IMG/VR virus record: IMGVR_UViG_3300008007_000039
Coordinates: 1-35,727 of that record
DNA: 35,727 bases
Origin: a virus
Taxonomy: Duplodnaviria; Caudoviricetes
Reading direction: 5' to 3' (one strand)
Shown here: positions 1,284 through 32,582 of the stretch, piece by piece
How the letters are laid out: the number at the start of each line of letters is the position of its first letter
Numbering within the stretch: position 1 is the stretch's first letter
Program-made: the position numbers and the translations under genes
Notes under the pieces: generated by a model
The model's database searches: none
Told to the model about the DNA's origin: nothing
What the model saw: only the letters and a program-made list of their open reading frames with translations

Positions 1284-3290
1284 TTATATCACATTAGTTG
1301 GTCTTAAAGCGCCATAAGCTGGAACCAATACTTTAGGATCCTCTGGTTCATAACCGTAAGCTGGAGGCAGTGAATTAACAGCTCTCCAAACAATGCTAAT
1401 CATCTGCGTGTTACTCGTTCCTGCTGCGTTGGTAGCCGTTACCGTGATAGTCTCTGTTTCTTCAGTATCGTTAGCAAGCCGTGTTAGTGCACCCGCATTA
1501 CTTAGCGAGTAACTAGCTTGATCAGCGCCTCCAGTTATCGTCCAGCTCGTTGCAGCATCACCGCCTGCGATTGTAAGTGTTCTGCTTAGTGCTTGTCCTA
1601 CTTTTGCGTAGATTGTCTTTGTTGGTGCCAATACAGGCGCTAATTGCGCTCTAGTCGTTACGCTGAATGAATCGCCAGCTACACCACCTGATACAACTCC
1701 ACCAAACGAAGCACTGGCTTGCAGTCTGACGTATATTGTAACACCGTTACCAGCGTTTACACTTGCGCCGAAACCTGATCCTGAGCTTAGCGATACTTCG
1801 GCGGTACCTGTTGCAGTCCAATCGATTGCAGTTGTGATTCCACTTGTAACGAATGATCTAGTCACATAAGCGCTAGGCTCAGCACCTGTTGTGTCAGCTC
1901 CTAAGTCTGGTACATCAGGCGTAACATCGTGATTAACTGTGACTGTTCGCGTTACTTGGTCAGCCGCATTGCCTGCCGCATCACTTACGTTGTAGTATTT
2001 GTAATAAGTCCCTACTGTAGTGTCATCAACCGAACCAGTCACTACGATATTTGCAGTTATATCGCCGTCAACATTATCGCTAGCCGTTGCACCAGCATCG
2101 ACCCAAGTATCACCGGCTGTAATTGTGTCTGTACCGCTAGTTAATGTTATTACTGGCTTGGTTACGTCTGGGCCAGTGTATGCACTTAGATTTAGTGTGT
2201 ATGGATACCAGAAAACACCGCCACCCAATCCTCCAGCATCAAACTTGCCAATAACCAGGTCAACACTAGCGGCATCTGTGTAAAAATACCCATTTTCGAG
2301 AACTTCTGTGCCGCTAACTATTGGGTAGTAAACTAGGTCATTGTGATTTAATGATATGCCACTTATTTCATCATTTAGCGTGCCAGCACCAGTGTCTGGG
2401 AACGTCAATTGGGTTAATGAATAGCCTGTTCTTGATCGTATTATTATATTACCAAAATCAAGCGTTCCTGCGTCGTACTCAACAGTTAGCGTCAAAGGGT
2501 AATTCAAATTAAATAAGTGCGATACGTCGGATAATGCTGTTAAGTCAGTTGGAACAACTAAATTTGGGAGCGTGCCGGTATATGGTACGCTTACACCATT
2601 AATATAAACAACGGGAGTTCCTGTCAATCCATCGCCAGTGTAAATATTTATTGATGTTCCTTCGTTAACATCGGTATCAGCACTTGGACTGCCACCGCCA
2701 ACGACTGACCATATAGGGGTACCAGCACCAGCAAAGCTAGGATTATCACCATCAACAGTTTCGCTGATCGGTGGAGTAGCTGACTCACCGTCGAAACTAA
2801 AAATCATATTATTCGCGGTATTAACGTTGTCAATAAAGCTAAATGCGCTAACAGTCAGTCCACTGAACGTATTGAAGTTTTCACCCAAGTTACCAAAAAG
2901 CGGTACTGTGTGCCAAGTTGCTGCTGATGTTCCTACACCCTGAGATACGCCGTTTATGTACAGAGTAGGTATTGTTGCTGCTGCTAACTTCTCTATCTTG
3001 ATCGTATTTACATCATCAAAAACAACATCAGATAGAAAACTACCCCACGAAACACTAGCAGCCGCTGCATTCTGCATAGTGAATGATGTAGCACCTCTTG
3101 AAAAATAAATCCGATTAGCGCTTGCACCTTGAGCAATTGTGCCCATTAGTCGCTCATTTGATGTATCGCCACTTGGCATGTAAACGCTAAAATTAAGCTC
3201 CCAGTCACCTTGCGAGCTACCGTTTAGGGTGTTGACCAATGCGTTAGCAAAAACAATGCGGCAATTTGTGAGCGTTACTTGATTAGCCAT
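1284..3290 (-). CDS. Large surface-exposed virion protein with Ig-like domains (DUF5011/HYR-like and C-terminal cadherin/He_PIG-like), possible lectin-like N-terminus
   Basis: Segment 'DVTKPVITLTSG...DAGATASDNVDGDITANIVVTGSVD...GTYYKYYNVSDAAGNAADQVTRTVTV' is the classic DUF5011-type Ig motif; C-terminal 'ITVTATNAAGTS'. Confidence 0.7.
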   Translation of the reverse strand: MANQVTLTNCRIVFANALVNTLNGSSQGDWELNFSVYMPSGDTSNERLMGTIAQGASANRIYFSRGATSFTMQNAAAASVSWGSFLSDVVFDDVNTIKIEKLAAATIPTLYINGVSQGVGTSAATWHTVPLFGNLGENFNTFSGLTVSAFSFIDNVNTANNMIFSFDGESATPPISETVDGDNPSFAGAGTPIWSVVGGGSPSADTDVNEGTSINIYTGDGLTGTPVVYINGVSVPYTGTLPNLVVPTDLTALSDVSHLFNLNYPLTLTVEYDAGTLDFGNIIIRSRTGYSLTQLTFPDTGAGTLNDEISGISLNHNDLVYYPIVSGTEVLENGYFYTDAASVDLVIGKFDAGGLGGGVFWYPYTLNLSAYTGPDVTKPVITLTSGTDTITAGDTWVDAGATASDNVDGDITANIVVTGSVDDTTVGTYYKYYNVSDAAGNAADQVTRTVTVNHDVTPDVPDLGADTTGAEPSAYVTRSFVTSGITTAIDWTATGTAEVSLSSGSGFGASVNAGNGVTIYVRLQASASFGGVVSGGVAGDSFSVTTRAQLAPVLAPTKTIYAKVGQALSRTLTIAGGDAATSWTITGGADQASYSLSNAGALTRLANDTEETETITVTATNAAGTSNTQMISIVWRAVNSLPPAYGYEPEDPKVLVPAYGALRPTNVI

Positions 3291-5917: not shown

Positions 5918-6427
5918 TCAGATTTTTACGAAGTTTTCAAAACCGAATTTTACAATTGCGTCTTCAAAATCACCCTTGAATTTTGGGCCTTTCTTTTTCT
6001 CGTATTCTTTGCCATCAGGTGAGCGATAAATTCCTGGCTCTACATCTGCTGGAGCTGGAATCTCAAAAGCCTTTTGCTCTGCTACCGGAACTGGAATGTC
6101 GGCTTTCGTAAGCTGCTCTGTAAAAACCTTATCCAATTCTGCGTAATCATAAGATGTTGGCTCTGGGTCTACAGCAGTTTCTTCTTTTTTGTCATCTTTT
6201 TTAATGCCATCACGAAAGTATTCGATGTCAATAAACTTTGATTCAGCCCAAGAAGTGACTCGCTCATTAACGCAATCCATAACAACAACATCACAGTTAT
6301 CTTCAAAGCCTGATTTCAATGAGCCGTTGCAAAACAGTACATGATTGCCTTTTTGTGTTTCATTATGCTGGTAGGCAAAATGCTCACCAGTAACCACTCC
6401 TTTGTCGATAAATAATAATTTCTTCAT
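5918..6427 (-). CDS. Hypothetical protein downstream of major capsid gene
   Basis: Start revised to MKKLLF (ATG 6427, GAGG RBS); preceded by TGGTAAAAT (6457-6465). Confidence 0.6.
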   Translation of the reverse strand: MKKLLFIDKGVVTGEHFAYQHNETQKGNHVLFCNGSLKSGFEDNCDVVVMDCVNERVTSWAESKFIDIEYFRDGIKKDDKKEETAVDPEPTSYDYAELDKVFTEQLTKADIPVPVAEQKAFEIPAPADVEPGIYRSPDGKEYEKKKGPKFKGDFEDAIVKFGFENFVKI

Positions 6428-8489: not shown

Positions 8490-10001
8490 TTATGCGTCTC
8501 GTGGCTTGTCGCTGATTTGTTCATTGCCAGCGCCTGCCAGCAATCCTTGTGATGTTTGTTGAGCTTTATCGAACTTTGCCTTTTGCGCTTCTTTTGCATC
8601 AAGAAATTCCATTTCTTTTTTAAGTTCTTCTTCTAGTTTTGCAGCATCATCGGCAAGATTGAAGTCTGGAGATAAAAGCTTACGCTGAAGTGCAGCCTCA
8701 ACAATTGCTTTGCGAGATATGTCTTGGTTTCGTCGCATCTCCATAAGAATACGCATCTCTTTATCGCTTTCGAGAGAATTAAACTCAGGAGAAATGTAAC
8801 CTTTAATGTCTTTAGACTTGCCAATGGTATAGCTTTCCATTTGGCGCAGGATATCTTCAACGTGTTGTGATAAAGATACTGCAAAAGATCTTAGTGCTGC
8901 ATTTGTACCTTGAGACTCAATGCTCGTCTGTGTAGCTGTTAACGTGCCAGGCCGTAGGGCATTGCTATCAATAGAGAATGTGCTAATGCGTTGTTGAATA
9001 CCTTCAAGCTGCTTGTTTCCTTCTTGAATTGCACCAGAATCAACTTGTATCCAGCTCAGCTCAGGCGACTTGTCACCAGACTCTGGCATACGTACCATCA
9101 TGTAAGATGCGAGCATCTCGATTTTGAAATCCATTGGTACGTTTTTAGCAGCAAGTATCGGCGTCAGCGCATAAAACATCATGTTCTTTATATCGCTGTA
9201 AACCTGAAAATGTTCGATTGTTAATTCTGCTAATGTCTGATATGGAGACTCGGCAAGAAGTGTGCCTTTCTTATTTGTGTAGAATACTGAGACGGGAACC
9301 TCATCTAGGATTCGCTGACTGCCATTTCGATATCGAGTGATCTCACCTTCTACGGTATTCTTTTCGTCACCATCAATATAGATAGTCCAGTAAGTCGGTG
9401 TTAATTCAAATACAGATCTAACGATTTCTGATCCATGCTCTTCACTATCGGTAATGTAATCGAAGTAAAACTTAAGATAGCTTAGTCTGCCTGTTTTTGG
9501 GTTTGACTTGAACGAAATAACATCGTCAATATCAATCTCTCGTGCATATGGTCGCTTTCCGTCATTGTCGTAGTCAATCATCACCATTGACAACCCTTTA
9601 TACATTGAGGCTTGCAATTGGTTTTGAATTAGCATAGTAAGATTGTTTTCTGCCAAGTCCATATTACCAATCCACGTTCGGAATGGCTCAGGTAGGTCGT
9701 CATTTGTCTTTTCGTCAACGGACACCATGACATTATTTGCAAGGATCTTGCCGCTGTCAGAAGTTACTGTGCGTTTAAAATAGTTGGTAAGAAATGTTCT
9801 CATGACTCGCAGAGCATAAAACTCATTTGGCTCATTTGGGAATCTAGGAAGGTATTCTGTTTCTACTACCTTATCACCAATAATATCACTGACGCCACGC
9901 AAAGCTGGCAGCCCAACAATAAGATCACGAACTATTCTATTACGCGAGTATTGCTTAGCAAAATACTGCGAACGCATTTGAAAGCCACTTGTTTTTAGCA
10001 T
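8490..10001 (-). CDS. Portal protein (DUF4055-like)
   Basis: 503 aa after terL; 'YLPRFPNEPNEFYALR...FLTNYFKRTV', 'LAELTIEHFQVYSD', 'TATQTSIE' motifs typical of this portal family. Confidence 0.85.
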   Translation of the reverse strand: MLKTSGFQMRSQYFAKQYSRNRIVRDLIVGLPALRGVSDIIGDKVVETEYLPRFPNEPNEFYALRVMRTFLTNYFKRTVTSDSGKILANNVMVSVDEKTNDDLPEPFRTWIGNMDLAENNLTMLIQNQLQASMYKGLSMVMIDYDNDGKRPYAREIDIDDVISFKSNPKTGRLSYLKFYFDYITDSEEHGSEIVRSVFELTPTYWTIYIDGDEKNTVEGEITRYRNGSQRILDEVPVSVFYTNKKGTLLAESPYQTLAELTIEHFQVYSDIKNMMFYALTPILAAKNVPMDFKIEMLASYMMVRMPESGDKSPELSWIQVDSGAIQEGNKQLEGIQQRISTFSIDSNALRPGTLTATQTSIESQGTNAALRSFAVSLSQHVEDILRQMESYTIGKSKDIKGYISPEFNSLESDKEMRILMEMRRNQDISRKAIVEAALQRKLLSPDFNLADDAAKLEEELKKEMEFLDAKEAQKAKFDKAQQTSQGLLAGAGNEQISDKPRDA

Positions 10002-18464: not shown

Positions 18465-18647
18465 ATGAAAGCAGTTTTGAACGAGAATGGGCGGATTACG
18501 TTGATCGCAGAAACCGTCGCTGAGAAGGTTGTACTGGACATGATCGATGTAGGTGATGAATGGCTGATACAAGACAAGTTTGATTTTCAGTGGATTGAGG
18601 GTGGAGATAAGGGTGGAAAGTTGGTGTTTCCAGAAGGGGTTAGATGA
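18465..18647 (+). CDS. Hypothetical protein, paralog family A (copy 3)
   Basis: AGGAGG RBS; MKAVLNENGRITLIAETVAEKVVL. Confidence 0.65.
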   Translation: MKAVLNENGRITLIAETVAEKVVLDMIDVGDEWLIQDKFDFQWIEGGDKGGKLVFPEGVR

Positions 18648-18750
18648 TGGTGTTAGCTATGTTAGCAAGAGGGTTGCTTGTGGTGATGGGGTTATTACTG
18701 GTGAGTTTGTAGACGCGCATTAACATGGTTTAAGTTTGTTTATTAGAGCT

Positions 18751-18776
18751 AAAGGGTGGATTTCCACCCTTTTTTA
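18751..18776. terminator. Rho-independent terminator between convergent genes
   Basis: AAAGGGTGGA-TT-TCCACCCTTT + TTT. Confidence 0.8.
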
Positions 18777-18805
18777 TTTGGCTAAGTATATGGATGGCTT
18801 TTATT

Positions 18806-19105
18806 TTAAGCTGATTCACTCAATTTAGTACACAATAGATAACCTTCAAGCTGCCAAATCTTATTTCGGGCATTATCGCGCGCTATCTTTCTACCAATTT
18901 CTTCATCAAAATTAGCTGGTGACGCTGCTGCACTCTCGCCTGTCACCGTAAATCCATTGCGCAAAGTAAGCGCGCAGACCGTTAGAGTGGTGTTCGGAAA
19001 CACATAATATTGCTCAGATTTGATAGTTGCATCGATCAAATCTGGCGTCAGTCTTGGTGCGTTTAGGTTCTTTTCCTGTATCTCTTTCTCGATTATTTCT
19101 TCCAT
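18806..19105 (-). CDS. N4 Gp49 / Sf6 gp66 family protein
   Basis: 'APRLTPDLIDATIKSEQYYVFPNTTLTVCALTLRNGFTVTGESAAASPANFDEEIGRKIARDNARNKIWQLEGYLL' matches the family signature; own TGCTATAGT promoter at 19177-19185. Confidence 0.85.
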   Translation of the reverse strand: MEEIIEKEIQEKNLNAPRLTPDLIDATIKSEQYYVFPNTTLTVCALTLRNGFTVTGESAAASPANFDEEIGRKIARDNARNKIWQLEGYLLCTKLSESA

Positions 19106-19719
19106 TTTTAGTCCTATTTCGGTTGTTTTTGGTGGGTACTATGCTTTATTTTTGCTCGATTTCTGAGCAGATTCACACTATAGCACACTTGGTTTATGGA
19201 TGTTTTTTGGTGTTTTATCAGGGTATTGGGTGTGGGATGGGTTGGAATTTGGGTTGGAATTAGGTTGGATTGGTATGGAGCTGTCCGAAAAACAGGCTGG
19301 GATTTCGGCGGGACAGTGGTGTTTTAGGTGGTGATTTGGTTAGTTGAACGTGGTATTTTTGGATGAAAATTGATGGGTTTTGGGGTGTTTTCATTTGGTG
19401 TTTTGGATGATTTGAACGGTGGTTTAAATGGTAAAAATAAGTGTGTTTTTGGTGCGTGTTTTGGTTGGTTTTGAGGTGGTTTTTAGTAGGTATTTGAACG
19501 GTGTTTTTATAGGGGTTTTAGAGTGGATTTCATGGGTATTAAATGGGTGCATTTGGTTATTTTTTGTACTGTTTTTGGTGTTAGTTTTGGTAGAATTTCA
19601 GGAGGATTTGAAATATCTGCTGGTTAGGTCGTCAAAATGTACTGTATGAAATGGTTATAAGAATGATTGAAATGTGTTGTTTTTGGAATATAGGAGTGAG
19701 ATTCGGTTGTGACAGAAGT

Positions 19720-19968
19720 TGTCCAAGTGGACAGGATTTTAATAAAAGGAGAAAAAATCGAATAAAAGGAGAATCGTTTCTCCTTAAATAAAACAGTGTT
19801 CGAGCCCAGTAAAGTAGGGGTATATAGTAATATATATATAATAAAAGTATTTAAATAATATAAATAATATAGTTAAGTTTCCTACAGCTTTCCCCCACCC
19901 TATTACTTCCCTTTGATCCCTCCTTTTTTATTTTAAATAAAATTTTAAGATGGTTGTCAAAATGACAA
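19720..19968. other. Candidate phage replication origin / protein-binding hub
   Basis: AATAAAAGGAGAA direct repeat (19741, 19761), AAGGAGAA-TCGT-TTCTCCTT inverted repeat, about 55 bp nearly pure A/T (19821-19875), flanking palindromes TGTCC-N4-GGACA and TTGTCA-AAA-TGACAA. Confidence 0.4.
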
Positions 19969-20100
19969 GGTAGTGTTTTGAAGTGCGGTTGTGTTCGGAG
20001 TGAGATTTTGATGGGAAAAATGGAGTGGATTTCGAGGTGAAAATTTGGGGTGAAAATGGCTGTGAAATTGGTGGGATTTTCAGGGGGTGAAAATTAGGGC

Positions 20101-20129
20101 TTGACACAGGGTGAATTTATGGGTAAGAT
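20101..20129 (+). promoter_or_regulatory. sigma70-like promoter
   Basis: TTGACA-17-TAAGAT upstream of AGGAGG/ATG 20165. Confidence 0.7.
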
Positions 20130-20164
20130 TCATGGTGAATTTTGAGGGGTGAGAGGAGGTTGAA

Positions 20165-20632
20165 ATGGGAGTTGGTGAAATGGGTGAAGTTCGCGAAGGC
20201 TGTGTTGAAGTCCTTGGCTACGAGATTGAAACTGGGAAGCCATACTGGGATTGTGATGGAGATATTGTTCGGTTTGGATTTGCTGACGGAGGTTTGCAGA
20301 TTGCTAAGTTGTTTTTTTGTGGTTGGGATGATTATGGCGCTTGGCACTCAGAAGGTGATCGTGGATTGAGTTACGTTAGCTCGTTGATTTTGATTGAGAC
20401 TGGTGAGAAGGTTCGGAAGGTGCTGAGTGAGCATGAAGCTTTGGAGGAGAAGCTTGGATTCAAGATCGAGATCGGGAAGCTGTATCAGTTTTTTGATGAC
20501 GAAGAATGGGTGATAGGGGTGTTGACTGCGATTGAGCTTGATGACGACGACGGTCTAGTGTTTGAGGCTGACGGATGCGCATGGTGGCAGAATATCAAGG
20601 TGATCTCTATTGACGAATTAGGAGGGTTTTAG
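20165..20632 (+). CDS. Hypothetical acidic protein with internal duplication
   Basis: 'LGYEIETGKPYWD' / 'LGFKIEIGKLYQFFD'; own promoter and terminator. Confidence 0.7.
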   Translation: MGVGEMGEVREGCVEVLGYEIETGKPYWDCDGDIVRFGFADGGLQIAKLFFCGWDDYGAWHSEGDRGLSYVSSLILIETGEKVRKVLSEHEALEEKLGFKIEIGKLYQFFDDEEWVIGVLTAIELDDDDGLVFEADGCAWWQNIKVISIDELGGF

Positions 20633-20700
20633 GGGGTAGGCAGTAGGGTAGCCTAGGTGTAGGGTAGAAAACGTCTGAAATAGTTAAATATGAATGCGAG

Positions 20701-20722
20701 AAGGGGCTTAATAGCCCCTTTT
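20701..20722. terminator. Terminator between convergent genes
   Basis: AAGGGGCT-TAAT-AGCCCCTT-TT. Confidence 0.75.
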
Positions 20723-20767
20723 GTACGAGTGGATTGTGGGATTTGGTTTGAAGATTGGAATTAGTGG

Positions 20768-21010
20768 TTAGTTTTTGGAGATTGGTGGGAACTGATAGAC
20801 GATTTCAGTTGGATGCGGTTTGACTTGCATACCAAGAGTCAATGGGTCTGTGCATTGCTTGGTGTATGGATCTTGGCTTGGATTGAGCTGTGTGTCTTGG
20901 ATTACCTGTCTGTGCTTGTCAAACGCTGCCAGACTTGCAAATACACGGCCACATGATGAGCATCCGCATCGTGATCCTCTGAGTGCTGCTTCGTAAATTG
21001 GTGATTTCAT
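20768..21010 (-). CDS. FDxHR-type putative zinc-binding protein
   Basis: CxxC ('CSSC') + 'FASLAAFDKHR' + 'CTDP'; AGGAG RBS; promoter TTGACA-17-TAAAAT at 21040-21068. Confidence 0.7.
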   Translation of the reverse strand: MKSPIYEAALRGSRCGCSSCGRVFASLAAFDKHRQVIQDTQLNPSQDPYTKQCTDPLTLGMQVKPHPTEIVYQFPPISKN

Positions 21011-21231
21011 AACGACTCCTTTGAGTTAATTGAGTGTGAATTTTATGTGAAAAATTTTAGGATGTCAAGATTGGTGAGTGTAGGTAGAGTGGGTAGGAAG
21101 GGGGGTGGACTAGGGGGTCTAGTATGGTGGATATTAGAGGAAGCTAATGTACCTGAATTAAAATTTGAAAAATAGTGAAGTGGTAGGCCTGTACATCCAT
21201 ACAGTATCAAAAGGGGGTGTAGGCGGGGTAC

Positions 21232-21338
21232 TTATCCACAGGATATCCACAGGATCGACGAAGTTATCCACAAGATACCCACAAGATACTAACAAGTTAT
21301 CCACAGTGTAAAGCCTGGTTATCCACAGGATATCCACA
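21232..21338 (+). promoter_or_regulatory. Array of co-oriented DnaA boxes
   Basis: TTATCCACA at 21232, 21264, 21297, 21319; ATATCCACA at 21243, 21330; degenerate ATACCCACA 21275 and ATACTAACA 21286. Confidence 0.85.
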
Positions 21339-21477
21339 GCCATTCTGTATATCAATACAGTAGTCCAACTTGGAATAATTGAGATTGAATACTGTATATC
21401 CATACACTGTTTAAGTGTACAGATATGGCATACAAACGTGTCAATACTGTATACATATCCAATAGTCCAACCAAGAC

Positions 21478-21547
21478 TAATCCAAGCTAGAACACTGTAT
21501 ATCCACCCATAATCCACCCCATAATAATCCAAGCTAGAACACTGTAT
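21478..21547 (+). repeat. 23-bp exact direct repeat TAATCCAAGCTAGAACACTGTAT x2
   Basis: 21478-21500 and 21525-21547 (47-bp period), each ending in a LexA half-site. Confidence 0.9.
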
Positions 21548-21684
21548 GCCTATCCAGTAATACAACTTAGAATAGTCTATGCTGAAATACTGTATATCCG
21601 ACCAGTAATCCATAGCCATGAACAAATGAATATAGCCTATGCAAATTTGCATACCCTGTCATAATGACAACGTACGACACTAAC

Positions 21685-21702
21685 TGTAAAGATAGGTTTA
21701 CA
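21685..21702. promoter_or_regulatory. TyrR/PhhR-type box
   Basis: TGTAAA-GATAGG-TTTACA is an exact match to TGTAAA-N6-TTTACA. Confidence 0.55.
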
Positions 21703-21996
21703 TTGGCTAGCTTGACATTTGGTTGGTGTTGTGCTATGGCGCTGAAGCTAGGACACCATAGAAAGCCGTATGCGCTGCGATGCATTGAAGCTATACCCTA
21801 GTACGTGATAGGTATAGAAAGGCCGTCGTGAGGCGATATAGGCTGGCGTGAATGGTTGGAATGAGTGCGGTATAGTATAGGCTAGGCAGTAGAATGGTAT
21901 TACATTGGTATTATTAGAATGGGAGTGAATTATTGTTGCGTTAAACGCAATATTTAGTGCGCAAAGTATCTCGCACTATAGTACGAACTAGGGACG

Positions 21997-22018
21997 AAAA
22001 AAAAGCCCGAATGGCTTT
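21997..22018 (-). terminator. Rho-independent terminator
   Basis: AAAGCC-ATTC-GGGCTTTTTTTT on the minus strand. Confidence 0.7.
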
Positions 22019-22031
22019 ATAGTTGGAAGGC

Positions 22032-22154
22032 TCAAAAGTACTGCAAAGCAGTGTAGATCATGCCAATTGCGTAAGTCATATACCAGTTGTAAGAAACAAG
22101 AATCCAAACTAATTTAATCGGTAACAATGCTAGCTTGAGAAGTGACTTGATCAT
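22032..22154 (-). CDS. 40-aa hydrophobic/membrane peptide (not in ORF track)
   Basis: MIKSLLKLALLPIKLVWILVSYNWYMTYAIGMIYTALQYF*; AGGA RBS, promoter TTGACT-17-TATAGT (22189-22217), terminator downstream. Confidence 0.65.
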   Translation of the reverse strand: MIKSLLKLALLPIKLVWILVSYNWYMTYAIGMIYTALQYF

Positions 22155-22431
22155 GATGGTAGTTCCTATCTAGTGAGTTGATGAACGAACTATAGCTATA
22201 TTATTTAAGTGAGTCAAATAATATTTGTAACAAAGTGTAAAAAGTTGAATGGTCGGACAAGAACCAGGATAAATAATCTAGGTCGGGCTTTGCGTGTTTT
22301 CCGTCATAATAGACTAAAACTATCGTCTTAATAGCCTACCCCTATTACGAAAAGGGGAAAATGATACACTATATCATTTACAACTATATCAATATCCGTT
22401 TATATTCAATCTATCTAATATAACACGCACC

Positions 22432-22456
22432 AAAAAAGGGCACTGATTAGTACCCT
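22432..22456 (-). terminator. Rho-independent terminator
   Basis: AGGGTACT-AATC-AGTGCCCT-TTTTT. Confidence 0.75.
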
Positions 22457-22468
22457 GTTCAATTACCA

Positions 22469-22696
22469 TTAATAATTATCAATATGACCGTTCAACGGCG
22501 ATAGAGTCACACCATGATCACGCCACTTGAATTTAAATGTATTCCCTTGCTTTAGCGTTGGAAAACAATTGAAAGCTTTTGAAACATCATTCTGAAAAGC
22601 ATCGACAACCAGGATTTCAACTTGCTCTTTTGTTAATGTCATTTGCTTTACTATTTTGCGACCATTGCGCAAAGTGCACCCAATTAATACAGTCAT
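22469..22696 (-). CDS. Hypothetical early protein
   Basis: AGGGG RBS. Confidence 0.6.
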   Translation of the reverse strand: MTVLIGCTLRNGRKIVKQMTLTKEQVEILVVDAFQNDVSKAFNCFPTLKQGNTFKFKWRDHGVTLSPLNGHIDNY

Positions 22697-22707
22697 TTTA
22701 AACCCCT

Positions 22708-22995
22708 TTATAAAGTATATTCCAGCTCTGGAATAAAACGCTTTATTAATTCAGCTCTAGCAAATTGACCTTGTTTTAATGTCAATCGCTCGTAACCGGT
22801 CATAATTTCAAAACATTGATAAGGTTCACGCTTAAACTTTACGATCTTTAAGCTACTTTGAGATGAGAACGCTATATCATACCCTATATTCTCTGATTCA
22901 TTGACAATTAAAGCTATATTGCCAGATCTACCAGAAACTAAAACAGGTTTACCGTTTATCATATCCAGCGCTTTCTTTATATCCGCTATTTTCAT
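22708..22995 (-). CDS. Hypothetical early protein
   Basis: Start revised to MKIAD (AAGGG RBS); TTGACA at 23057-23062 upstream. Confidence 0.6.
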   Translation of the reverse strand: MKIADIKKALDMINGKPVLVSGRSGNIALIVNESENIGYDIAFSSQSSLKIVKFKREPYQCFEIMTGYERLTLKQGQFARAELIKRFIPELEYTL

Positions 22996-23023
22996 TTTAA
23001 AACCCTTATTCAATTAATTCAAA

Positions 23024-23146
23024 CTACACAAACACAACACCCGCACACAACACCCGTGTCAATACCAAACCTACATTTCTCACGTAGTAGCGCGTTTTAC
23101 CGTTTACCGTGTTTACCACTTCTCTCAATTCGCTTTGATAGATCAT
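23024..23146 (-). CDS. Short ORF (40 aa), possibly truncated by a promoter cassette
   Basis: ATGA overlap with upstream gene; C-terminal half runs through a TTGACA promoter. Confidence 0.35.
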   Translation of the reverse strand: MIYQSELREVVNTVNGKTRYYVRNVGLVLTRVLCAGVVFV

Positions 23147-23313
23147 AATTCACCCGCTACAACATTTAAAACCCATTTCAAACTAACACGTTGCCAGCCA
23201 CTAACGACAATTCCAGCAACTTCACACGATAGCCAATAATGCCCACAATTACTACGTTTAACAAGCCAAACTTTTTTGCTATTAAAACGATCCACAAATT
23301 TGTCAATTGTCAT
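23143..23313 (-). CDS. Small hypothetical protein (56 aa, not in ORF track)
   Basis: AGGTGAG RBS; MTIDKFVDRFNSKKVWLVKRSNCGHYW...*. Confidence 0.6.
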   Translation of the reverse strand: MTIDKFVDRFNSKKVWLVKRSNCGHYWLSCEVAGIVVSGWQRVSLKWVLNVVAGEL

Positions 23314-23317
23314 GATC

Positions 23318-23503
23318 TCACCTTTTTTTATAAACTCTATTTATAAGCTCTATTGTTTCTTTTTCACGGTTTTCAATCTGACATTTAGCATGCGCAGTAA
23401 ACAGCTTTATATAGTCACTTGGCTTTCCTCCGAACTTTTCGGCACGCTCTTTTGCGCTTGGCACCAAAACTACTTTTATTTGTTGCTCGTTAAGTTTAAA
23501 CAT
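23318..23503 (-). CDS. Hypothetical early protein (starts MFKLNEQQIK)
   Basis: GAGGTG RBS; shares leader and first codons with 25036..25551. Confidence 0.65.
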   Translation of the reverse strand: MFKLNEQQIKVVLVPSAKERAEKFGGKPSDYIKLFTAHAKCQIENREKETIELINRVYKKR

Positions 23504-23549
23504 AATCTCACCTCTTAAATTTTGTCTTAATTGACGCCTATACAATAAA
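23478..23549. repeat. 72-bp exact repeat, copy 1 (-10, leader, RBS, first codons)
   Basis: Identical to 25526-25597. Confidence 0.9.
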
Positions 23550-23575
23550 CCCAATTTAAACCGTTGTCAGCAACA

Positions 23576-24010
23576 TTAATCAGCTGGATTATTTTTTATT
23601 ATTGATCTAATATTTTCTTTATTTTTACGCCAGAATTTTAGCGCTTTTTTTCCATCCATTTCTAAAATTCTATTATCATTAAATCCAAACCAATTCTCTA
23701 TCCGGTGATTTTGGCACCCTATTTGAAGTGAATCTTTTGTATACGAAATGTTGTATTCATCAAAAATAAACAACGTTTTGATATTTTTTGAATTACCTAT
23801 ACAATTACTTAAATTAGCACCAGTCAAATTAGCATAAGTCAAATCAGCATCAGTCAAAATAGCATCAGTCAAATCAGCATGACTCAAATTAGCATCAGCC
23901 AATCTGACACCAGTCAAATTAGCATCAGTAAAATCAGCACGCTTACCACCATCATTATTTAGCCATTTCTTATGAAGCTCTAATATCTCATTCAATTCTT
24001 TTTGATTCAT
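23576..24010 (-). CDS. Pentapeptide-repeat protein (copy 1)
   Basis: A(D/N)LxX repeats encoded by 15-nt tandem DNA units, followed by an 'LQIGCQNH..W' C-terminal domain. Confidence 0.9.
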   Translation of the reverse strand: MNQKELNEILELHKKWLNNDGGKRADFTDANLTGVRLADANLSHADLTDAILTDADLTYANLTGANLSNCIGNSKNIKTLFIFDEYNISYTKDSLQIGCQNHRIENWFGFNDNRILEMDGKKALKFWRKNKENIRSIIKNNPAD

Positions 24011-24050
24011 AATCTAACCCTCAATTAATTTAAATTTAAACAACACCAAA

Positions 24051-24079
24051 ACAATAAAGCTATTTCAAACCAGTGTCAA
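24051..24079 (-). promoter_or_regulatory. sigma70 early promoter
   Basis: TTGACA-17-TATTGT; spacer similar to those at 23542-23570 and 25590-25618. Confidence 0.75.
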
Positions 24080-24158
24080 TACCCTTAAAACAAAATAGGG
24101 TTAAACGTTTCAATTCGAATTGTGTTTTACATGATAAAGCCCCAATATTTAAAAGTAT

Positions 24159-24506
24159 TTAAAAGTATTTAAAAGTGAATTTTAATTTGTTCGGTGGTAA
24201 TACACTACCGTCAATCAGCGGTCCGCCAGCTTGCTTGAACTTGCTATTACAAAAATCTAGCGCCTCTTTTCTAGAATTACAATACCCACTAGCAACTACT
24301 CTATGCAGTGAACGCCACTCGCTAGAATCATAAACGATTTCGCACACGCAATACAAGCCCTTTTTGCGCGGCTTGAAAAGCTTTTCACGCACTTCTTTTA
24401 AGCTAGTAATTCCACTAACTAGAATTTCCCCGCCTTTCAAAAAATGAATTTTATTCATTTCCGGCGCGTATGTATGCCGTTCAAGGATGTATTTCATTTC
24501 ATTCAC
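24159..24506 (-). CDS. Hypothetical early protein
   Basis: 115 aa ORF after promoter TTGACA-17-CATAGT (24555-24583). Confidence 0.55.
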   Translation of the reverse strand: MNEMKYILERHTYAPEMNKIHFLKGGEILVSGITSLKEVREKLFKPRKKGLYCVCEIVYDSSEWRSLHRVVASGYCNSRKEALDFCNSKFKQAGGPLIDGSVLPPNKLKFTFKYF

Positions 24507-24715
24507 ATTTCAGTTAATTCAATCTATTTTTTAATCTTACTGCCAACAAACAGAACTATGCCTAACAAAATTGCCAATGTCAACACACAACAAAAAGAAA
24601 AACCAAAAATACTTACTAAACCAAAAACACGCGCAATAGTAAACAAGCCAAGCCACGCGCAAATAAACAGAAAGCACGCGCAAAAATCAATTGCAAATTT
24701 CATCTTCTTTACTCC

Positions 24716-24743
24716 AAAAAAAAGGCGTCACCTTAATAACGCC
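24716..24743 (-). terminator. Rho-independent terminator
   Basis: GGCGTTA-TTAAGG-TGACGCC-TTTTTTTT. Confidence 0.75.
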
Positions 24744-24751
24744 CTATCCAT

Positions 24752-24865
24752 TTAAATCTTACCGGTTACAATTCCAGCGAAGCAAACAGCTATGAAAATC
24801 AAACCGGAAACCAGATCAACCCCAAACACTAAAGCCATGACCGCCAAAATAACTAGAAACTTCAT
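24752..24865 (-). CDS. 37-aa membrane peptide (not in ORF track)
   Basis: GGGGG RBS; MKFLVILAVMALVFGVDLVSGLIFIAVCFAGIVTGKI*. Confidence 0.55.
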   Translation of the reverse strand: MKFLVILAVMALVFGVDLVSGLIFIAVCFAGIVTGKI

Positions 24866-24878
24866 TAATTACCCCCAT

Positions 24879-24911
24879 AATACAACCAACAATACAACCA
24901 ACAATACAACC
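24879..24911 (+). repeat. 12-bp tandem repeat AATACAACCAAC x2.75
   Basis: Direct reading of sequence. Confidence 0.8.
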
Positions 24912-24917
24912 CACAAA

Positions 24918-25034
24918 TTAACAATAAATACGCTTTAGTGCTCGACGTTCGCCACGTTGTTTCCGCTCTTTATAAGCTTCAACACGTTCACGTTTATCAA
25001 GTTTTTGACCTTTTTCGGTTTTAATCATTTTCAT
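24918..25034 (-). CDS. 38-aa basic peptide (not in ORF track)
   Basis: MKMIKTEKGQKLDKRERVEAYKERKQRGERRALKRIYC*, starts 1 nt after the upstream stop. Confidence 0.5.
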   Translation of the reverse strand: MKMIKTEKGQKLDKRERVEAYKERKQRGERRALKRIYC

Positions 25035-25035
25035 T

Positions 25036-25551
25036 TTAATAGTCCTGTAATAGTTCGTTTAATGTTTCAATTTGTTCACTTGTAAAAACAGAAACCATGT
25101 CAAAATAGATTTGATTGCAAGCTTTATAAATTAATTTTGCTTTGCGTGAATCAGTATCATAACCAAGGTCGCCGCACCAACCTTCAAAGCTATAATCGTG
25201 CGCTTGCATATCAAGTAATAAACAATAAAGAACATCAGCCGCTTGTGGCGCAATTGCCGCCATTTTTTTAGTTGGACTTACACCGCCAATAACGTGGAAA
25301 ACATCGCTATTAAATCCGCCAATAAGATCAAAATACTTTTTGCCTGCGGATTGTACTCTACCAGATACCGTTACACGGTGACCTAAACCGGTATTAAAAT
25401 TAAACGATTTTTTTCCAAAAGAGGCGCGCCACAAGTCGCTAGGCCATTCGTTATCATGCTCGTTATTTGAAGCATAACGCACTGAATAATTTACATTAAT
25501 TAATTTTAAATATTCTGCCAATTTGATTTGTTGCTCGTTAAGTTTAAACAT
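25036..25551 (-). CDS. Hypothetical early protein (starts MFKLNEQQIK)
   Basis: 'FNTGLGHR...DVLYCLLLD...SFEGWCGDLGYDTDSRKA' looks like a conserved phage family; promoter TTGACA-17-TATTGT at 25590-25618. Confidence 0.7.
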   Translation of the reverse strand: MFKLNEQQIKLAEYLKLINVNYSVRYASNNEHDNEWPSDLWRASFGKKSFNFNTGLGHRVTVSGRVQSAGKKYFDLIGGFNSDVFHVIGGVSPTKKMAAIAPQAADVLYCLLLDMQAHDYSFEGWCGDLGYDTDSRKAKLIYKACNQIYFDMVSVFTSEQIETLNELLQDY

Positions 25552-25597
25552 AATCTCACCTCTTAAATTTTGTCTTAATTGACGCCTATACAATAAA
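25526..25597. repeat. 72-bp exact repeat, copy 2
   Basis: Identical to 23478-23549. Confidence 0.9.
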
Positions 25598-25914
25598 GCT
25601 ATTTAAAACCGTTGTCAACTATTTTTTTTCACTCATAAAAAGCCACCATTCAAAGCAAACAATCGCCAGTCGACCAGGAAACAACCAGAAAACAGCCAAC
25701 CAAAAGCCAAGCCCAACGACAAACCAACCTTATGTACACCTACTGCTCATTGGCTGAAATATTGCTTTTCCCCGAAAAAACATTGCTTGCATCTAAATTT
25801 AACATGCTTGCACCTTTTAACTTTTGCCTTTTTCCCAAAATTACAAAGCCTATTACCTACACTTATCAACATCTATAGGTGCTTTTACCCAAAATCCATA
25901 TCAAGCACTTAACC

Positions 25915-26337
25915 CTATTTAAAAGAATCTACCTTTTCCCCAAAATGGCGATGGCATAACCTTGCCATATTGACATACATGTCTTCAGGTGTTGGCTGCC
26001 ATTGATTCCAGTATTTTGTCTCCCATAATCGCCGAACAAAGCTACCACTAATCTTGCAGAACTTCTCCTGATCAACGTCAAAGCCACGCTTCACGCACTC
26101 ATCAAACACAGAATTATGACGATGAAACAGCCACTTTAATTTGTTAAAGAAAAATGACTCGTGCCCTTTTCCGAGAATATAGTTGTCTGCTATTACAACG
26201 CCTGCCAAAGCATTTTCAATACCATACTTTTCGATGCGATCAAGCACCTTATTGAATGGCCTTGTAATCTCTTTATACTCAGCCATAAGATGCTTGTTTG
26301 TTAATGTCTCTACTGGAACACAGTTAATACGTGTCAT
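25915..26337 (-). CDS. denV: Pyrimidine-dimer DNA glycosylase / endonuclease V
   Basis: N-terminal 'MTRIN...L..KHLMAEYKEITR' with catalytic Thr2/Glu, 'LGKGH..FF.NKL..L..R', 'KRGF' as in T4 DenV. Confidence 0.9.
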   Translation of the reverse strand: MTRINCVPVETLTNKHLMAEYKEITRPFNKVLDRIEKYGIENALAGVVIADNYILGKGHESFFFNKLKWLFHRHNSVFDECVKRGFDVDQEKFCKISGSFVRRLWETKYWNQWQPTPEDMYVNMARLCHRHFGEKVDSFK

Positions 26338-26389: not shown

Positions 26390-26854
26390 TTAATAAGCTG
26401 GATTATTTTTTATTATTTCTTTGATAGTTTCTTTATTTTTACGCCAAAATTTGAGTGCTTCTTTTCCATCCATTTCTAGAATCATATTATTGTCAAAACA
26501 CCACCATTCCTCTATTTTATGAAGCTCACATCCAATTTGAAGTAAATCTTTTGTATATGAAATATTGTACTCATCGAAAATAAACAACGTTTTAATATTT
26601 GTTGAATTACCTACGCAATTCCGCAAATAAACATTAGTCAAAATAGCATTAGTCAAACTAGTACGATAAAAATTAGCATTAGTCAAATTAGCATTAGTAA
26701 AATTAGCATTACTTAAATCAGCACCACTTAAATCAGCATTACTAAAATCAACATAACTCAAATCAACACCACTCAAAATAGCACGTTGACCACCATCATT
26801 ATTCACCCATTTTTTGTGAAGATCTAATATCTCATTCAATTCTTTTTGATTCAT
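26390..26854 (-). CDS. Pentapeptide-repeat protein (copy 2)
   Basis: Paralog of 23576..24010, 10 aa (two repeats) longer. Confidence 0.9.
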   Translation of the reverse strand: MNQKELNEILDLHKKWVNNDGGQRAILSGVDLSYVDFSNADLSGADLSNANFTNANLTNANFYRTSLTNAILTNVYLRNCVGNSTNIKTLFIFDEYNISYTKDLLQIGCELHKIEEWWCFDNNMILEMDGKEALKFWRKNKETIKEIIKNNPAY

Positions 26855-31806: not shown

Positions 31807-32214
31807 CTAATCAGGCTCCTTGAAAGTTACCTTGGCTACTGCATCATTGACAACTTTCTTAGCGCCTTTCACTGTCTCACCAGCATCGAGCTTTACCTTA
31901 ATAAGCTTCTTTGACGCGACCTTCTTTGTCTCAAAGAACTCATCTGGCAACTCATCTTCGTTTTCAATGACAATCACCTCGCGGCCTTTCGGAATCTTGA
32001 TCTCAAAAATATCCTTGTCAACATGCTTGACGCCATCACTCTTCATGTGGCTTGTGATCTCGGCCAACACAAGGTCGATTTGCTCTTGCAGCTTGTCTTG
32101 AGACTCTTTTAGCGAGTCAAGCTCAGTCTTTTTTGCTGCAACATCGAAGTCAACCACATTTTTCTTATTTTGCAATGATGTCAATGCTTGCACTCTTTCT
32201 TCGTAAAAATTCAT
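31807..32214 (-). CDS. Siphovirus Gp157-like protein
   Basis: Coiled-coil N-terminus, 'V.IENEDELPDEF...K.SKK.IK..L.AGE.V.GA'. Confidence 0.7.
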   Translation of the reverse strand: MNFYEERVQALTSLQNKKNVVDFDVAAKKTELDSLKESQDKLQEQIDLVLAEITSHMKSDGVKHVDKDIFEIKIPKGREVIVIENEDELPDEFFETKKVASKKLIKVKLDAGETVKGAKKVVNDAVAKVTFKEPD

Positions 32215-32582
32215 ATTGCCTCTCCTGTTATTGTTTGTGATTTTGTTAATATGCAATCAAGTATCGCATTGCATATGTTTTTGGTTTTGTTTTTTGGCTC
32301 TGACGCCCATGATCCAATTACCCACTCATTAAAGCAATTTTCAAGTCTTACATAGCACTTAGACTCAGAGTTATTGATCTCTATCGTACCGCCAATTGCA
32401 GTAAGAAGCTCCATTGCATGGCCTAAATCGTTGTTCGGGTGAAAGCTAATTGTGTCAAAAGCATTATCATTATTGGTTAGCGATACATAACGATTACCTG
32501 TCATTAGTGATCTTGCTGGGCTTGCCTTTAGCCCGCAAATCTTGCAAGCCTTTAATATTCTCCGCTGAGTATCGATATTCAT
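32211..32582 (-). CDS. Hypothetical protein
   Basis: GGAGG RBS; 'FHP.ND.GHAMELL'. Confidence 0.6.
   Translation of the reverse strand: MNIDTQRRILKACKICGLKASPARSLMTGNRYVSLTNNDNAFDTISFHPNNDLGHAMELLTAIGGTIEINNSESKCYVRLENCFNEWVIGSWASEPKNKTKNICNAILDCILTKSQTITGEAI

Follow-up and report, generated by a model that had tools for sequence, protein, structure and literature searches.

Phased DnaA-type boxes and tandem LexA-type boxes in a gene-poor gap of an uncultured tailed phage share their order with the T5 injection-stop core

The stretch of DNA analysed here, which we call the window, is an entire virus record of 35.7 kb and represents a fragment of the genome of an uncultured tailed phage from aquifer (groundwater) metagenomes. 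The terminase, portal, scaffold, and capsid genes lie on the minus strand at 6.5-11.8 kb, and the capsid protein is at most 34% identical to those of cultured phages. Small genes occupy the plus strand at 11.9-20.6 kb and the minus strand at 22.5-35.7 kb, several of the latter behind TTGACA promoters, and they run towards each other into a gene-poor gap (20.6-22.4 kb) with terminator-like hairpins on both sides. An array of DnaA-type and LexA-type boxes lies in this gap, and the features of the region are as follows.

20701..20720, no strand: GC-rich hairpin, likely a terminator, between the converging ORFs left of the array
20768..21010, minus: 80-aa ORF with a phage FDXHR zinc-binding domain (PF24071), downstream of the promoter at 21040..21068
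21040..21068, minus: strong sigma70-type promoter (11/12 match in the promoter scan), which fires away from the array
21049..22350, no strand: predicted terminal repeat or packaging-start segment, placed weakly and with approximate edges from raised contig depth and GC-skew peaks
21158..21652, minus: 164-codon antisense ORF, probably not a gene, which crosses the whole array; gene callers list the ORF on 36 contigs
21187..21206, no strand: LexA-type box 1, a full CTG-N10-CAG site that departs from the 20-bp consensus at 5 positions
21232..21338, plus: phased row of DnaA boxes in ten slots of 11 bp, of which 7 have at most 2 mismatches to TTATCCACA and 4 are exact
21343..21607, no strand: degenerate ~47-48-bp tandem repeat, each unit opened by a LexA-type box
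21638..21653, no strand: perfect 16-bp palindrome, single copy in the window
21652..21671, no strand: TGTCA-N3-TGACA palindrome (core 21657-21669), whose inverted twin of 20 bp (85% complementary) is at 19953-19972
21685..21702, no strand: exact TyrR-type palindrome TGTAAA-N6-TTTACA, 0.025 expected per whole window, 10 bp upstream of TTGACA
21712..21740, plus: weak promoter-like site (TTGACA, 17 nt, TG-n-TATGGC), read by eye and under the scan threshold
22002..22018, minus: terminator-like hairpin, which shields the array on the right side
22360..22378, no strand: Fur-like 19-bp palindrome, 4 mismatches to the Fur consensus, a score that one further site in the window equals
22437..22456, minus: terminator-like hairpin at the end of the leftward early-gene cluster

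The DnaA boxes are all on the plus strand with a period of 11 bp and gaps of mostly 2 bp. Exact copies of TTATCCACA start at 21232, 21264, 21297, and 21319, the boxes at 21243 and 21330 have one mismatch, and the box at 21275 has two; a 21-bp direct repeat of two DnaA boxes (at 21232 and 21319) lies inside the row. An earlier reading of this DNA from its letters only (the sequence-only reading) had counted eight DnaA-type boxes. Seven of these stand, and the eighth, the slot at 21286, has four mismatches and counts by position only. Of the eight LexA-type boxes that it had counted, five are full CTG-N10-CAG sites (21189, 21345, 21407, 21542, and 21590) and the other three have the left half only (21392, 21447, and 21495). 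Taken as 20-mers, six of the eight start units of the ~47-48-bp repeat, with full boxes at 21343, 21540, and 21588 and half boxes at 21390, 21445, and 21493; an extra full box lies within the repeat at 21405, and the 20-mers at 21390 and 21405 share 5 bp. In some units the LexA-type box is followed by a second motif resembling TCCAA-N-TTGGA, and the invariant columns of the repeat include the CTGTA half-site. The large number of sites is due to local tandem duplication.

Significance was judged by 2000 shuffles, none of which reached the observed count for any motif. In the segment 21151-21720 the four exact DnaA boxes compare with a shuffle mean of 0.011 (0/2000 shuffles reached 4), and the five full LexA-type boxes compare with a mean of 0.10 (0/2000 reached 5). 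The claim that these are non-random sites resembling host DnaA and LexA boxes is therefore borne out. Over the whole window exact DnaA boxes are confined to the array, with none in the remaining 35,157 bases, and no further WTATCCACA is present in the window outside the array. The exact TyrR-type box at 21685-21702 and the two further palindromes (21638-21653 and 21657-21669) that had been reported were found as well. The names TyrR, Fur, and IHF are used here for likeness to those motifs. The LexA consensus TACTG(TA)5CAGTA and the DnaA consensus are those quoted in the accessible text of PMC6015884.

The sequence-only reading had further held that the array contains no credible gene and overlaps no promoter. 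The antisense ORF does cross the array, but it was rejected as a gene: the only homolog found was the ORF itself, and neither PHROG nor Pfam gave a match. No strong promoter lies under the boxes, whereas four weak 9/12 matches do overlap them; the region has 26 such matches in total against 20.9 +/- 5.0 expected, which is chance level. A structured RNA at the array was also rejected because Rfam families gave 0 matches in 18500-26000 and the fold z of -2.8 is a value that DNA palindromes give.

Other observations were made elsewhere in the window. A 40-codon hydrophobic ORF on the minus strand (22032-22154) lies between a 10/12 promoter (22217) and the terminator (22018), within the predicted repeat. 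The segments 23474-23569 and 25522-25617 form a 96-bp near-identical duplication that comprises a promoter, a ribosome site, and the first codons (MFKLNEQQIK); it heads two different early genes, and many assemblies break there. Two related early genes with pentapeptide repeats are found at 23576-24010 and 26390-26854. Inside a gp49/66-family gene, at 19015-19083, 7 of 8 runs share a joint with 19 identical extra letters, which probably comes from another organism's homolog. The segment 19100-19970 holds a non-coding G/T-rich tract and, after it, a strongly AT-rich stretch together with palindromes and the TGTCA-N3-TGACA twin, and similar G/T-rich tracts are present at the inner edge of the terminal repeat of KASIA and in the gap of Lactococcus phage AM1; it is possible that this segment is an origin or a second end signal. 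The segment 31807-32256 encodes a Mu Gam-like / Sipho_Gp157 protein (phrog_253), a candidate DNA-end protector.

Several lines of evidence bear on whether the array sits at a genome end. Cumulative GC skew has one peak at 21228, which precedes the first DnaA box by four bases, and another at 22296, and in phage KASIA, whose arms likewise run outward, the peak is 2 bases from the end junction of the record. Depth on the contig carrying the array exceeded that of the neighbour listed on the right in 8 of 8 runs (median 1.7x) and that of the neighbour listed on the left in 7 of 8 (median 1.3x), a comparison in which depth is one figure per contig, which cannot place ends, the neighbours were hand-picked, 7 of the 8 runs may be one campaign, and GC bias may enter (right flank GC 0.36 against 0.40). 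In three runs the contig breaks at 22342-22395 and depth falls beyond. Taken with the convergent genes, the skew peaks and the raised depth weakly suggest that the array lies in a terminal repeat of ~1.3 kb, and both such a repeat and a packaging start fit the depth and skew data. A T5-like 10-kb repeat reaching from terL to the array was rejected because 12-21 kb shows no doubling of depth.

No close DNA relative of the element was found among 50,697 phage records, 13 of which gave box matches of 47-53 bases only. Searches with the flanking proteins found no relatives in viral contigs and, in metagenomes, only a 99.97% identical copy (L277); metagenome run X22 differs from the window at one place in 21172-21578. 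A search of 185,579 prokaryote genomes found no capsid relative. Among complete relatives G001 is the nearest, with a capsid identity of 74%; its 104 kb contain a single WTATCCACA and no cluster of LexA boxes, and the contig stops at the corresponding point of convergence without an array. Since no DnaA/LexA array was found in KASIA either, the module is optional. A homolog of T5 A1, P0019 (45% identity), lies outside the window on the longest contig, of 80,606 bases, to which L277 also belongs and which it shares with proteins of the window phage, and therefore an A1 homolog is probably present elsewhere in the genome of this phage. G001 has an A1 homolog with 41% identity at 78701-80122, and KASIA has one in a DNA-metabolism module. 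However, because 1,134 phage records carry A1 homologs and KASIA has A1 without an array, an A1 homolog is no sign of two-step injection.

The T5 injection-stop core (IRD'-spacer-IRC' and its inverted twin IRC-spacer-IRD), as given in the accessible text of the Davison preprint (10.1101/866236), is like the window in that a same-strand DnaA pair is followed by a CTG-N10-CAG box. The junction in the window where a DnaA pair passes into LexA aligns with the T5 core (51 nt, 72.5%, E 0.002 in a comparison of 1.4 kb with 5 kb), and T5 has a near-perfect LexA box adjoining DnaA boxes at 9411 and in the inverted twin at 6213. Both regions are non-coding gaps where small genes converge, both have a palindrome with an inverted twin upstream, and the T5 core is tied to a terminal repeat as the window copy is to a predicted one. 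The two also differ. The box period is 11 bp in the window and 12 bp in T5, the DnaA boxes form one long row in the window but pairs 52 bp apart in T5, and there are eight LexA-type sites against one. The capsid module of the window is unrelated to that of T5, and the predicted repeat of ~1.3 kb has no room for pre-early genes whereas the T5 repeat of ~10 kb carries dmp, A1, and A2. In the window there is no inverted twin of the DnaA/LexA core, where only a 20-bp palindrome has a twin, and no dmp, A1, or A2; the window thus lies outside the strict T5 injection-stop system. To our knowledge, decades of interest in the T5 injection stop have yielded neither a named host factor nor a tested mechanism. 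The accessible text of the Davison preprint (10.1101/866236) describes the T5 DnaA boxes, proposes a stop by membrane-bound DnaA, refers to a supplement that lists further repeats, and mentions neither LexA nor Fur as a protein, while that of a paper on BF23 (PMC10644984) calls experimental studies lacking. The statement of the sequence-only reading that no such element had been described must therefore be narrowed to the LexA pairing. In T5 (L274 9550-9720) the repeats adjoining the DnaA boxes read like Fur boxes by the Fur consensus.

Other cultured phages also have DnaA boxes near their ends. Shigella phage A7 (Berlinvirus, NC_048180) has an exact 177-bp terminal repeat that is mostly DnaA boxes and holds all 8 WTATCCACA, 4 per end. 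A7 resembles the window in its phased same-strand DnaA boxes, which in A7 fill the end repeat, and it differs in having no LexA box and a repeat of 177 bp. Our literature search found no paper on rows of DnaA boxes in A7-type terminal repeats. Matches are near the record ends in phiEap-1, Kp7, LIT1 (a DnaA pair ~0.85 kb from the genome end), and BD1, and they are internal, in intergenic gaps, in Lactococcus AM1 and Pseudoalteromonas H101. A match in Acinetobacter phage B9 turned out not to be a DnaA array.

Pattern scans of viral contigs gave at least 120 loci with a DnaA pair, at least 116 with LexA near DnaA, and, as controls, at least 119 with a TyrR-type box before TTGAC; the loci of at least 3 kb that were kept among the matches listed numbered 78, 80, and 66, respectively. 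Among the matches listed, 39 of the 78 DnaA-pair loci had a terL match. In the LexA set the same was true of 17 of 21 loci with at least four DnaA boxes and of 9 of 59 with a smaller number, while the listed controls, with flanks of half the length, had a terL match in 0 of 66. When the listed matches were grouped into 64 sequence clusters, terL was within the locus in 8 of 25 clusters with arrays (at least 4 boxes) and in 3 of 39 without (Fisher p 0.018), an association biased upward since 7 of the 9 terL seeds were taken from array loci; the other 17 of the 25 listed array clusters had no terL match. Where both were present among the matches listed, the array was upstream of terL in 41 of 43 loci, and PHROG scans confirmed terS/terL adjoining hand-picked arrays. 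LexA accompanied DnaA rows in only 5 of the 78 listed loci picked by the DnaA pair alone. The TyrR box had been read as part of a combined module; among the matches listed it was within 500 bp of a DnaA pair in 0 of 120 loci, and a DnaA or LexA cluster was present at 0 of 119 TyrR-box loci, so it was rejected as a recurring part. Two viral contigs of 129-145 kb (L064 and L072) have ~20 DnaA boxes within 300 bp around position 3000. Tandem runs of 3-11 LexA boxes occur in the unrelated viral contigs L282 (3970-4095), L287 (4010-4080), L288 (4000-4210), L291 (745-1085), and L294 (4000-4085), which make up 5 of 14 loci and mostly have no DnaA rows. The run in L291 is upstream of a replication protein, that in L288 is upstream of a terS-like gene, and that in L287 adjoins Fur-like sequence.

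The sequence-only reading took the array to be a titration decoy, by which amplified genomes would late in infection soak up LexA and DnaA and thereby bring about SOS recombination, a division block, and no host initiation. Cellular pools of LexA and DnaA are about a thousand each, and 100 genome copies would bring 500-800 LexA and 700 DnaA sites, which is of that order. The multiplication of LexA boxes by tandem duplication is in keeping with a decoy, and the LexA-box runs of other phages, mostly without DnaA rows, are what selection for site number would give; those in L282, L287, L288, L291, and L294 are better decoy candidates than the window array. On the other hand, LexA autoregulates, a single copy at entry cannot titrate, and the TyrR box is not a recurring companion of such arrays. 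The several same-direction high-affinity DnaA boxes resemble datA, and excess datA delays initiation according to a title cited in PMC5742627, but there is no IHF site between the boxes by a strict consensus. Moreover, T5, which has the same DnaA-LexA core, degrades host DNA within minutes in an A1-dependent manner (10.1101/866236, accessible text), so that derepressing host genes would gain little, and the A1 homolog P0019 shares the longest contig with proteins of this phage. A decoy would work without helical phasing or a set position, yet the DnaA boxes here are phased like those of oriC and such arrays in other phages lie at genome ends or just upstream of terminase, which titration leaves unexplained. 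Titration is not supported as the best reading, and a role in cis at a genome end fits better; we consider a decoy unlikely, although it keeps some weight.

It is less likely again that the array senses the state of the host, with LexA, DnaA, and a TyrR-like factor controlling the leftward promoter at 21068, the rightward one at 21712, or a weak one at 21690 before the antisense ORF. The TyrR-type box just upstream of TTGACA would suit such control, as would the LexA boxes that stand directly before the terS start codon in several unrelated contigs, and there are precedents in E. coli uvrB, co-regulated by DnaA and LexA (PMC6015884), and phage GIL01, controlled by LexA (PMC4551915), where, as in the window, LexA or LexA and DnaA sites are clustered on one stretch. 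However, in the accessible text of those papers the sites overlap mapped promoters, whereas those of the window have no strong promoter beneath them. The LexA box nearest to the strong promoter is ~120 bp upstream, promoter matches beneath the boxes are as frequent as chance predicts, 0.5 kb of sites is far larger than an operator, and the antisense ORF has no homologs. The oriC-like phasing of the DnaA boxes could point to a DnaA-dependent replication origin or a replication-restart site, but this is improbable: the cumulative GC skew is at a maximum here, as at a terminus or end, and not at a minimum, transcription converges on the array, the flanks lack AT-richness (GC 0.37-0.41, compared with 0.30 at 19.75-20.0 kb), an IHF consensus is missing from the 1 kb on either side of the DnaA row, and the T5 origins are described as central in the accessible text of 10.1101/866236. 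An internal predicted origin is given in that of PMC11512268. We give the least credence to sites for a phage protein, such as the small terminase, or to mere repeat expansion, with the likeness to host boxes incidental. The LexA-like units do make up a tandem repeat that is decaying and have a further motif in common, and relatives are without the module, but four exact TTATCCACA and five exact CTG-N10-CAG, invariant repeat columns that coincide with the CTGTA half-site, and the pairing of DnaA and LexA motifs in unrelated phages all argue against it.

The explanation that we favour, while holding it at somewhat less than an even chance, is that the array is a landing pad that acts in cis at the end of the phage genome, predicted to be coated by DnaA and LexA before any phage protein is made. 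What can be seen directly is the boxes, how they are phased, an order in common with T5, and the position of such arrays at ends or near terminase in other phages. We infer that the array lies in a terminal repeat of ~1.3 kb, is bound by host proteins, and serves in the handling of the end. On entry of the DNA, host DnaA would polymerise head-to-tail on the phased boxes, as on oriC arrays, and LexA dimers would load beside it and extend the coat; tandem duplication of sites would make the coated stretch longer. The coat would anchor the entering or exposed end in the cell and would slow end-directed nucleases or sensors until the phage Gam-like protein (31807-32256) is made. The accessible text of PMC5742627 describes oriC oligomerisation arrays with same-direction boxes 2-4 bp apart that carry head-to-tail DnaA oligomers. 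The window is like the low-affinity arrays of E. coli oriC in its closely spaced same-direction boxes and unlike oriC in having mostly high-affinity boxes, no adjacent unwinding element or IHF consensus, and a terminus-like skew. A simple roadblock would at best delay RecBCD since RecBCD evicts tandem arrays of tightly bound proteins in vitro (10.1101/142224, accessible text). The landing pad is weakened by the relatives G001 and KASIA, which have no array. A broader proposal, which is conceivable but rather doubtful, is that a gene-free end cap has evolved repeatedly in unrelated lytic phages, in which DnaA/LexA arrays would recruit these host proteins to the first-entering DNA, anchor it, and for the seconds that precede any phage protein hide it from nucleases and defences that sense ends; the T5 stop would be one derived use, and once the genome is amplified the array would also act as a LexA/DnaA sponge.

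In open-licence PMC and bioRxiv we found no paper on combined DnaA and LexA arrays or on site decoys in lytic phages, a search to which subscription papers or supplements could add one. What is already known is T5's DnaA boxes, which are in print; the pairing with LexA was found in no paper. The window is an unusually rich example of a DnaA-LexA module, with the roles of its boxes predicted from sequence. That the core is present, expanded, in an unrelated phage and likely within a short repeat at the end detaches the module from two-step injection and points to host DNA-binding proteins being put to general use at the ends of phages. The finding also names two host proteins and the exact boxes for mutation in T5 and in T7-like coliphages.
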